Source of the DNA: Escherichia coli 042
Lineage (GTDB): Bacteria > Pseudomonadota > Gammaproteobacteria > Enterobacterales > Enterobacteriaceae
Length of the DNA stretch: 64,000 nt
Assembly: GCF_000027125.1 (NCBI RefSeq)
Contig: NC_017626.1
Strand: one strand, 5' to 3'
Every line of letters begins with the position of its first letter. Within the stretch, counting starts at the first letter, position 1. The position numbers were made by a program. Positions 54,901 to 57,900 of this stretch are shown here, in pieces.

Positions 54901-57900
54901 AAGCCATTACGCTCATCTTCCGTCACCGGTCCCATCCGCGAACAAGGCGCAATCACCATCGCCCGTTCCACCACAGAAGGACTTCCTTTTGCATCGAGAA
55001 ACGAGATTAACGCCTCGCCGGTCCCCAGTTCCTGGATTGCCTTTTCCGTATCAAATGCAGGGGTGGGGCGCATGGTTTGCGCCGCAGCTTTTACCGCTTT
55101 CTGATCTTTGGGCGTAAAAGCACGCAAAGCGTGTTGAACGCGATTACCGAGCTGGCCGAGCACATTATCTGGAATATCAGACGGGTTTTGCGAAACGAAC
55201 CAGACGCCCACGCCTTTTGAGCGAATAAGCCTTATCACCTGCTCAATCTTATCCAGCAGTACCTGCGGGGCATCGTTAAATAGCAGATGTGCCTCGTCGA
55301 AGAAAAACACCAGTTTTGGTTTCTCCAGATCGCCCGCTTCCGGCAATTGTGCATACAACTCTGAAAGCATCCACAGCAGGCTGGCGGCGTACAGTTTCGG
55401 CATCTGATAAAGCTTCTCGGCGCTGAGGATATTGATAACGCCTTTACCGTTGGCATCGGTGCGCATCCAGTCTTTGATATCCAGCATCGGCTCACCAAAG
55501 AAGTGTGCTGCGCCTTGCTGTTCCAGCGACAACAGCCCGCGCTGGATGGCACCAACCGATGCGCTACTGATATTTCCGTACTGATTCTGGAAGGATTTGG
55601 CGTTATCGCCGATGTACTGGGTAATTGCCCGCAGATCTTTAAAGTCGAGCAGTAACAGCCCCTGATCGTCAGCAATGCGGAAAATGATATCCAGCACGCC
55701 AGATTGCACATCGTTGAGATTCAACAGTCGCGCCAGCAACAGCGGTCCCAGATCCGAAACCGTCGCCCGCACCGGATGGCCTTTCTCGCCAAAGATATCC
55801 CACACCACCACCGGATTGGCATGCGGTTGCCAATCATTGACGCCGATATTTTTAAGCCTTGCGAGCAGTTTTTCCGACGCCGTTCCTGCCTGCGCGATAC
55901 CGGTCAGATCGCCTTTCACATCAGCCATAAACACCGGCACGCCGATTTCCGACAATGACTCTGCCAGTTTTTGCAGCGTAACGGTTTTACCCGTCCCCGT
56001 TGCGCCGGTAATCAGCCCGTGACGGTTCGCCATTCCCGGCAGTAAAAACAGTTCTGTGTCCGGCGTGCGGGCAATTAACAGGGGTTCGCTCATGAGATTT
56101 CCTCCAGTTTCCTGCCTGGAGTATAGGCAACGGCTGCGCACTCTTCACCGCTAAATTCAGCAGATTGCGAGACGCCTTCCAAAGAGATTTAAGTGCCGGG
56201 CGACAGGCACCCGGCAAAGAGATCAGAAGTCAGCTTTCAGAACCACGCGGTAACGCGCCTTACCGTCGCGCACATGCTTGATGGCATCGTTAATTTTCGA
56301 CATCGGGAACAGTTCGGTGGTCGGCGCAACCTTGCTACGGGCGGCAAAGCGCATCAGCTTTCGCAGCTCATAAGGCGTGCCGGTAGCAGAACCAGAGATG
56401 CTGCGGTCGCCCGCAATTAACGTAAAGGCTGGAACAGACAGCGGCGTGAGAACCGCACCGACCGTATGGAAATTACCGCCATAGGTCAGCGCCTCAAAAT
56501 AAGGCGGCCAGTCGAGGCTGACGTTCACAGTATTGATAATGAGATCAAACTGCCCCGACAGGGCTTTCAGTGCCTGCGGATCGCGGCTATTCACCACTTT
56601 ATCGGCACCCATCGCCAGTACTTCCTGCTCTTTCTCCGGATTAGAACTAAAGGCCGTCACCTCGCATCCCATTGCGTGCAGAAGTTTTATAGCGATATGC
56701 CCCAGCCCGCCAATACCAATTACCCCAACGCGGCTGGTAGCAGTGATATGGTGCATCAACAGTGGTTTAAAGACCGTGATACCGCCGCACAACAGCGGCC
56801 CGGCGGACTCGATATCAATATTTTCTGGCAGTGGAATCACCCATTGCCAGTCCGCACGCAACTTCTCGGCAAAGCCACCGCGATTCATAATCGTCGGCAC
56901 AGCACCTTGCTCGCAGTTGATCTGATTACCGCTAATACAGGCGTCGCAGTGACCACAGCTACGCGCCGTCCAGCCAATCCCGACACGCTGACCGACCTGC
57001 AAACCTTTATCCTGCGCGGCGCTCCCGAGTGCCACCACGCGCCCAATCACTTCATGCCCGGCAACCAGCGGATATTGTGAAAATCCCCATTCGTTATCGA
57101 TCATCGACAGATCGGAATGGCAGATCCCGCAGTAATCCACCTGCACTTCAATATCTTGTGGCTTCAGCTCACCGGGATCGTACTCATAAACTTCCAGTTC
57201 GCCGCCCGCTTCTTTTGCGGCATAGCTTCTTATCATCGACATTTTTTGGTCCTTCTCTGGTGTTGTCTGGGAAGTGTAGAGCATGGCAGGGCGGGGTGCC
57301 TGGAGTGTGACAAAGGTTACACATCGCTGTATGCAATGCTGAAAATTTCAGCACTTAGCGAGATGCGAGCAAGCTGGCGCTTGCATGGTGGCGTGCGACA
57401 GGTATAATCCACAACGTTTTCCGCATACCTCTTCAGTGCCGAAGTGGCGAAATCGGTAGACGCAGTTGATTCAAAATCAACCGTAGAAATACGTGCCGGT
57501 TCGAGTCCGGCCTTCGGCACCATCGGAACATCAATAGACGTCAACGGACGTCTTTTTTTGTGCCTGAAATCCAGTATCCGCAAGGCTTTCCTCGATTTTC
57601 CTTTCAACAGAAGTCAATCTGAGTCAACCCACATCAAGTCGCTTGTGAGTATAGAACCGAGTATATATGCTGGTTCGATAATGGTTGTATACTCACAGCG
57701 GCACATGGAAGGAGAACTTTTATGGCTCTGACAGATATCAAAGTGCGTTCTGCAAAACCACAGGAAAAGGAGTATACCCTTGCCGATGGAGATGGCATGT
57801 TTTTGCTCATTCACCCTAACGGCTCAAAATACTGGCGGTTTCGCTTTCGCTTTGGTGGTAAGCAGCACCTGATGGCATTTGGGGTTTATCCTGAAACGTC

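Follow-up and report, generated by a model that had tools for sequence, protein, structure and literature searches.

The yjgR-ahr junction of Escherichia coli 042, an idn-less allele common to the majority of E. coli genomes

Genes and features of the yjgR-ahr interval

The genes yjgR and ahr lie next to each other in Escherichia coli 042, close to the tRNA gene leuX, and the five idn genes that separate them in E. coli K-12 are not found between them. Our data for the strain are one stretch of 64,000 nucleotides (64 kb) of contig NC_017626.1, hereafter the window, which had been given an initial annotation from its sequence. That annotation put the distance from the yjgR start codon to the ahr stop codon at about 130 bp with no idn gene in it, and we found a spacer of 129 bp (56094..56222), bounded by the yjgR start codon at 56091..56093 (CAT on the + strand) and the ahr stop codon at 56223..56225 (TCA on the + strand). 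Searching the 64-kb window by tblastn with the five K-12 Idn proteins gave only distant paralogues of 22-27% identity, located in the treR region, the bdcA region and ahr, and the window holds no GntII (idn) cluster, i.e. no set of idnD, idnO, idnT, idnR and idnK homologues. Our analysis indicates that the window very probably has the empty allele of the yjgR-ahr locus, where the presence or absence of idn is a known polymorphism, and that its spacer is functional sequence and not the scar of a deletion.

The two flanking genes were identified by domain models and by comparison with K-12. YjgR scores 840 bits against Pfam HerA_C and is 98.4% identical to K-12 YjgR at the amino acid level, while Ahr scores 549 bits against the NCBIfam equivalog AldhRedAhr (cut-off 470) and is 97.6% identical to K-12 Ahr. 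The mechanically called open reading frame (ORF) of ahr extends to 57284; we place the start at 57242 because the Ahr model begins at residue 15 of this ORF and the RefSeq coding sequence (CDS) is 1020 bp long. Strain CFSAN061772 has a 100%-identical stretch, where the RefSeq annotation names both yjgR and ahr. The coordinates of all the features are collected in Table 1.

Table 1. Features at and around the yjgR-ahr interval, in window coordinates
Feature	Position	Strand	Description
yjgR CDS	54591..56093	-	500 amino acids; HerA-like C-terminal / DUF853 ATPase
yjgR leader, 39 bp	56094..56132	-	common to idn-less and idn+ alleles; GGAGG Shine-Dalgarno, inverted repeat, TATACT
58-bp block	56133..56190	-	specific to the idn-less allele; conserved non-coding, upstream of yjgR
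GC-rich hairpin	56194..56216	-	six bases past the ahr stop; probable intrinsic terminator of ahr
12-mer CCGGCAAAGAGA	56211..56222	.	abuts the ahr stop
ahr CDS	56223..57242	-	339 amino acids; NADPH-dependent aldehyde reductase
leuX, tRNA-Leu(CAA)	57438..57522	+	ARAGORN; Rfam tRNA 59 bits
Strain-specific leuX island	57576..64000, running off the window	+	homology to K-12 and CFSAN061772 ends at 57575

Comparison with the K-12 allele

The K-12 and 042 alleles differ by two changes and not by one. The gene order idnR-idnT-idnO-idnD-idnK between yjgR and ahr, which the initial annotation gave for K-12, is that of the MG1655 annotation, with 5,126 bp between the two flanking CDSs. This is the GntII locus (idnK and idnDOTR; b4264-b4268) for the catabolism of L-idonate and 5-ketogluconate. 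The neighbourhood pepA-lptF-lptG-yjgR ... ahr-leuX is shared by the two strains, the part from pepA through yjgR and its 39-bp leader (50030..56132) being 97.8% identical and the ahr-to-leuX stretch (56223..57575) 97.0% identical. The difference lies between these two parts, where the window lacks all five idn genes and has instead 78 bp of spacer (56133..56210) without a counterpart in K-12. In a blastn comparison with the 16-kb K-12 region, homology breaks at 56132, 39 bp 5' of the yjgR ATG, and restarts exactly at the ahr stop, at 56223; K-12 does not have the junction of about 130 bp.

The last bases of the spacer, the 12-mer CCGGCAAAGAGA, occur identically in K-12 (L001 6105..6116), two bases past the homology break on the yjgR side. 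The position of this match is exact, but it spans few bases and has E = 0.09 in the search of the 16-kb region; only 10 of the 12 or about 7 of the 12 bases are kept in two Citrobacter idn+ alleles. After the 12-mer, K-12 has 5,074 bp, made up of 26 bp of spacer, idnR through idnK and TTT, and then the ahr stop, so that the two alleles are separated by a change of 5,074 bp and another of 78 bp. Since the spacer contains 78 bp that the idn+ allele lacks, it is not the scar of a recent or simple idn deletion. The matches to idn genes within the spacer are only at chance level (9-14 nt).

We found no integrase between yjgR and ahr in K-12, and the boundaries of the K-12 cassette (L001 6117 and 11190) show neither direct nor inverted repeats. 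We had considered the idn polymorphism as a tRNA-associated integrative island, and rejected this because of the missing integrase and boundary repeats and because the leuX island starts past the tRNA, at 57576. The initial annotation had taken the leuX-proximal region to be variable on both sides of the tRNA. This stands in so far as homology to K-12 and CFSAN061772 ends 53 bp past the tRNA, but the two regions arise differently: the leuX island is integrase-associated, whereas the idn site has neither an integrase nor flanking repeats and is separated from leuX by ahr.

We also suspected at one point that ahr alleles are tied to the idn state, as identity in the first blastn was only 90% over 56223 to 57912. 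Taken by itself, the ahr CDS is 97.3% identical to that of K-12, and the low figure arose because the alignment included sequence beyond leuX.

Frequency among complete E. coli genomes

The idn-less state is the majority state in E. coli, and K-12 represents the less common type. We searched 5,426 complete E. coli genomes with a junction query made of 500 bp each of yjgR and ahr across the junction, counting matches with at least 80% query coverage. A contiguous yjgR-ahr junction is present in 3,212 of these genomes (59%), O157:H7 and sequence type (ST) 131 among them, and the 90-bp allele-specific spacer in 3,222, at 95% identity or higher in nearly all of them. The junctions of the idn-less O157:H7 and ST131 genomes are the same as that of the window, with 90-bp spacers 100% and 98.9% identical and in single copy. 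We see no substantive difference between idn-less E. coli and the window; the flanking yjgR and ahr alleles are a few percent apart, as among all E. coli. The window thus has yjgR and ahr contiguous with the spacer of about 129 bp found in other idn-less E. coli, and nothing was recently deleted at this site.

The K-12 idn segment is found in 2,055 of the 5,426 genomes (38%), nearly at full length in 2,038. The median number of places per genome is one, and no plasmid carries the segment. The junction query gave about 2,050 additional places where it is split; since this number equals that of the idn+ genomes, the idn genes are apparently located at the yjgR-ahr site whenever they are present. 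In about 158 genomes ahr is missing or largely deleted. These three classes, i.e. contiguous, idn+ and ahr-deleted, cover essentially all of the genomes, which argues against an empty junction and relocated idn genes coexisting in one genome.

Two further arrangements were seen at the locus. In two ahr-deleted strains, FCI56 (L091) and G8 (L092), an internal deletion leaves a short remnant of ahr between an empty-type yjgR spacer and leuX. Some E. coli contigs encode a protein of 556 amino acids (P0071, P0073) with a LacI-type helix-turn-helix domain fused to HerA_C, which is 93% identical to IdnR over 65% of its length; it appears to be an IdnR-YjgR fusion formed by a deletion across the idnR-yjgR junction, and hence a further state of the locus.

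Variation of the idn genes among close relatives has been reported before. The idnODRKT genes are an accessory cluster that varies even within ST95 (PMC8545132), and Salmonella Typhi lacks idnDOTK (PMC6138749). Those cases resemble ours in that an accessory catabolic cluster varies among close relatives, with a predicted loss of growth on L-idonate. The nearest Salmonella IdnR-like protein that we found is just 56% identical to K-12 IdnR, and the Salmonella cluster may not be an orthologous cassette or site.

Anatomy of the spacer

The spacer appears to be organized for two functions, the end of ahr and the start of yjgR. Both genes have the - strand as their sense strand, and in this direction the spacer region consists of the ahr TGA, six bases, a hairpin, the tail CUUAAAUCUCUUU, the 58-bp block, the leader and the yjgR ATG. 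The hairpin is real, as noticed in the initial annotation, and its string GTGCCGGGCGACAGGCACCCGGCA runs over 56193..56216, one base shorter than the 56193..56217 given there. This string occurs once in the window, and none is expected in shuffled sequence. The hairpin has a 9-bp stem with arms at 56194..56202 and 56208..56216 and a 5-nt loop, and folds on the - strand with -17.3 kcal/mol (z = -3.6 against shuffles). The + strand folds about equally well (-18.9 kcal/mol) owing to extra outer pairs, and the total folding energy does not tell the strands apart. One stem position forms a U.G pair on the - strand and a C.A mismatch on the + strand; it is this position and the direction of both genes, and nothing else, that make us favour the - strand. 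The same U.G / C.A asymmetry can be read by eye in the hairpin of Citrobacter werkmanii.

This hairpin is probably the intrinsic terminator of ahr. It is a stable GC-rich stem-loop just 3' of the stop codon on the transcribed strand, as is typical of intrinsic terminators, and a scan with a loose rule calls it terminator-like on the - strand, with a U-tract interrupted by A residues. It is kept at the same place in E. albertii despite base changes, while the fold in C. werkmanii is less clear (z = -1.4). We read it as the ahr terminator because the idn+ alleles, K-12 included, have a different hairpin at the equivalent position, adjoining the ahr stop and lying inside the 3' end of idnK.

The 58-bp block is absent from the 16-kb K-12 region and is presumed to be a promoter or regulatory region of yjgR. 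In the leader, a GGAGG, a CTCCAG-N8-CTGGAG repeat and a TATACT hexamer resembling a -10 element can be read directly, and these motifs point to a possible promoter function. An Rfam scan of 55900..57700 returned the tRNA only and no family for the spacer block. A genomic SELEX (systematic evolution of ligands by exponential enrichment) study reported intragenic RpoH and RpoE peaks within yjgR only, and is uninformative for the spacer (PMC5493296). We also considered whether the 78-bp block or the hairpin is a multi-copy repeat resembling a repetitive extragenic palindrome (REP), a bacterial interspersed mosaic element (BIME) or a miniature inverted-repeat transposable element (MITE), or another mobile element. 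This was rejected, as the spacer is single-copy, with a median of one place per genome and a maximum of two in the 3,222 genomes (blastn, word size 11).

The repeat CTCCAG-N8-CTGGAG is a perfect 6-bp inverted repeat at about 56101..56120 (- strand) and overlaps the Shine-Dalgarno sequence of yjgR. E. albertii and K-12 have it unchanged, C. werkmanii and Citrobacter sp. FP75 retain it with 5 bp, and in C. amalonaticus it is disrupted. The repeat could serve to sequester the ribosome binding site or to bind a protein.

The interval in other species and genera

Both the empty and the filled allele are found in Escherichia and in Citrobacter, and each of them must therefore be old. The outgroups are among the matches listed in a YjgR scan of species-representative genomes; the contexts in E. 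fergusonii and Salmonella fall outside the comparison. In E. albertii and C. werkmanii, ahr and yjgR are 132 bp and 139 bp apart, respectively, with no idn genes between them. Compared with the window, E. albertii and C. werkmanii are 94% and 70% identical, respectively, over the spacer as a whole, 100% and 90% over the 39-bp leader, and 97% and 74% over the 58-bp block. The idn cassette is found at this position in Citrobacter sp. FP75 and C. amalonaticus, where the spacer between idnR and yjgR is homologous to its K-12 counterpart.

The site and the cassette are also found apart from each other. The same five-gene cassette lies amid unrelated neighbours in Trabulsiella odontotermitis and Mangrovibacter yixingensis, where the similarity stops at the idnR and idnK stop codons. 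In Enterobacter cloacae (L006 8217..9863) and Pseudocitrobacter faecalis (L008 8225..9901), the slot is occupied by a single gene for glycerone (dihydroxyacetone) kinase, which lies on the opposite strand. In windows of 1 kb, the GC content of the idn cluster is mostly 46-50%, compared with 52-55% in the flanks. The nearest IdnR from outside E. coli is that of Citrobacter, at about 90% identity, and no sequence falls between 91% and 99%, so there is no sign of a recent import from another sampled species.

Sequence diversity and recombination

The idn cassette is far less diverse within E. coli than the genes that flank it. We compared five idn+ strains, namely K-12 and four from the lower end of the identity ranking, and found the idn genes to be 98.8-100% identical, compared with 94-96% for yjgR and 95-98% for ahr. 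In sliding windows of 300 bp, the mean pairwise difference is 0-1.5% in the cassette, 2-7% in yjgR, 3-5% in ahr and 0.5-2% in lptF/lptG, with sharp steps at both edges of the cassette. Between individual strains (the window, L001 and L083-L086) the divergence is 3-7% for yjgR, 2-6% for ahr, 0.6-2.2% for lptG and 0-1% for the idn cassette. Pairwise matrices that include idn-less strains show no grouping of the yjgR or ahr alleles according to idn state. These patterns suggest that the E. coli cassette copies descend from a recent common ancestor and were transferred to many different flank backgrounds through homologous recombination. The low idn diversity of the five strains is more likely to reflect the re-spread of one Escherichia haplotype. 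The divergence of yjgR and ahr among E. coli is unusually high, roughly half the distance between E. coli and E. albertii.

Of the two major hotspots of phylogenetic incongruence in E. coli, one is the region around leuX (Touchon et al. 2009, PMC2617782). The yjgR-ahr locus is about 1.2 kb from leuX, within the incongruence region of about 200 kb, and the high diversity and allele shuffling of yjgR and ahr are in keeping with this hotspot.

Discussion

We propose that the hairpin after the ahr stop most likely terminates ahr transcription, and that the 58-bp block and the 39-bp leader, with its TATACT, inverted repeat and GGAGG, most likely drive and tune the expression of yjgR. In the alternative allele, that of K-12, five genes (the idnK/idnDOTR cassette, 5,074 bp) are inserted precisely at the ahr stop, and 78 bp of the empty-allele spacer are missing. 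Strains would swap the two alleles through homologous recombination in the core genes on either side, within the recombination-hot region of leuX. With less certainty, we infer that originally an empty site acquired the cassette. We favour gain because the cassette occurs in other contexts, its GC content is lower, the 78 extra bases are otherwise unaccounted for, and other genera have other cargo here. From the known GntII pathway, the strain would be expected not to grow on L-idonate or 5-ketogluconate, with its use of gluconate through the main GntI system unaffected.

Several points weigh against this interpretation. The U-tract after the hairpin is imperfect, and a scan of the spacer for the sigma-70 consensus found no site, so the TATACT hexamer is only a suggestion; the terminator and promoter roles are read from structure, position and conservation. 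The diversity comparison covers five idn+ strains only, and our view of the strain covers 64 kb of its genome. As for the direction of the original event, the alleles are two changes apart (5,074 bp and 78 bp), and we found no intermediate allele. The idn+ junctions of E. coli and Citrobacter have about 80% nucleotide identity and are about as diverged as the flanks, and the filled allele must therefore be ancient as well.

It is possible, if doubtful, that the idn genes were already at this site in the common ancestor of Escherichia and Citrobacter, and that the empty allele came from one old deletion with a small rearrangement and then spread within and between the genera by recombination, so that the state of the window is ultimately an ancient loss. 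The cassette does lie at one and the same site, flanked by homologous junctions, in E. coli, C. amalonaticus and Citrobacter sp. FP75, where the Idn proteins are 80-96% identical to those of K-12, similar to the flanking proteins (91-94%), and the gap in IdnR identity between the Citrobacter sequences at about 90% and those at 99% argues against a recent import from a sampled species. However, the 78 bp missing from the filled allele could not have arisen by deletion. The unrelated contexts of the cassette in other genera, its GC content below that of the flanks, the dak cargo in the slot in Enterobacter and the idn diversity far below that of the flanks inside E. coli also speak against a loss.

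A broader reading, which we offer tentatively, is that the interval is an integrase-independent cargo slot of the Enterobacteriaceae with at least three states (empty, idn and dak), where Escherichia and Citrobacter have kept both the filled and the empty allele from a time before the split of the two genera, or across it, under selection that varies with the availability of L-idonate in the gut. L-idonate is a breakdown product of ascorbate. If this is true, a conserved regulatory block of 58 bp belongs to the empty allele alone, and yjgR is wired differently in each class of allele.

A recent deletion of the cluster from an idn+ ancestor, through illegitimate recombination in this strain or the lineage immediately before it, is highly improbable. 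In its favour, the initial annotation started from K-12 as the reference, and other deletion states do exist at the locus, namely the internal ahr deletions and the IdnR-YjgR fusion proteins of some E. coli. Against it, one single-copy junction sequence is shared by 3,212 genomes from different phylogroups and by two other species, this junction contains 78 bp absent from the idn+ allele, and no idn remnant is found in the spacer or the window. Relocation of the idn genes to a place outside the 64-kb window is hardly credible, as the contiguous, idn+ and ahr-deleted genomes account for essentially all of those searched, the idn segment has a median of one place per genome with none on plasmids, and the number of split junctions equals that of the idn+ genomes.

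The variability of idn in E. coli is already published, and our finding is accurate but ordinary; knowledge of the pathway and of island biology is unchanged by these results. For annotation, use of L-idonate or 5-ketogluconate is not to be expected in this strain, and the K-12 gene order should not be taken as the E. coli norm here, as 59% of the complete genomes have no idn genes at the site. The locus is of modest interest for population genomics near leuX, given the homologous empty alleles in three species, the low-diversity cassette between hyper-diverse flanks and the alternative cargo.

The leuX island and other differences in the window

The leuX island opens with a P4-type integrase (57722..58975), which scores 278 bits against its domain model, below the cut-off of 434 bits. 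It is followed by a gene for a 794-amino-acid protein (59244..61628) with two GHKL ATPase domains, HATPase_c_3 near the N-terminus and HATPase_c at the C-terminus, and a weak similarity to restriction enzymes of the BbrUII/HgiDII type. An ORF of 616 amino acids (61625..63475) overlaps this gene by 4 nt and has only a sub-threshold match to Response_reg_2. The pair may be a two-gene conflict or defence module, with no clear system assignment by PADLOC.

Three other differences were seen against the closest genome, CFSAN061772 (L087). At 15329..15458, about 128 bp stand in place of a 634-bp segment with the chpS-chpB toxin-antitoxin genes (L087 35032..35667), and the chpSB module appears to be absent from the strain. 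In the nrdG-cybC interval, about 40 bp (26186..26226) replace about 426 bp with a gene for a RelB/DinJ-family antitoxin (L087 23748..24174). The segment 42363..43234 is 85% identical to CFSAN061772, compared with 98-99% for the rest of the window, and covers a frameshifted gene annotated there as 'DNA-binding protein' beside argF.

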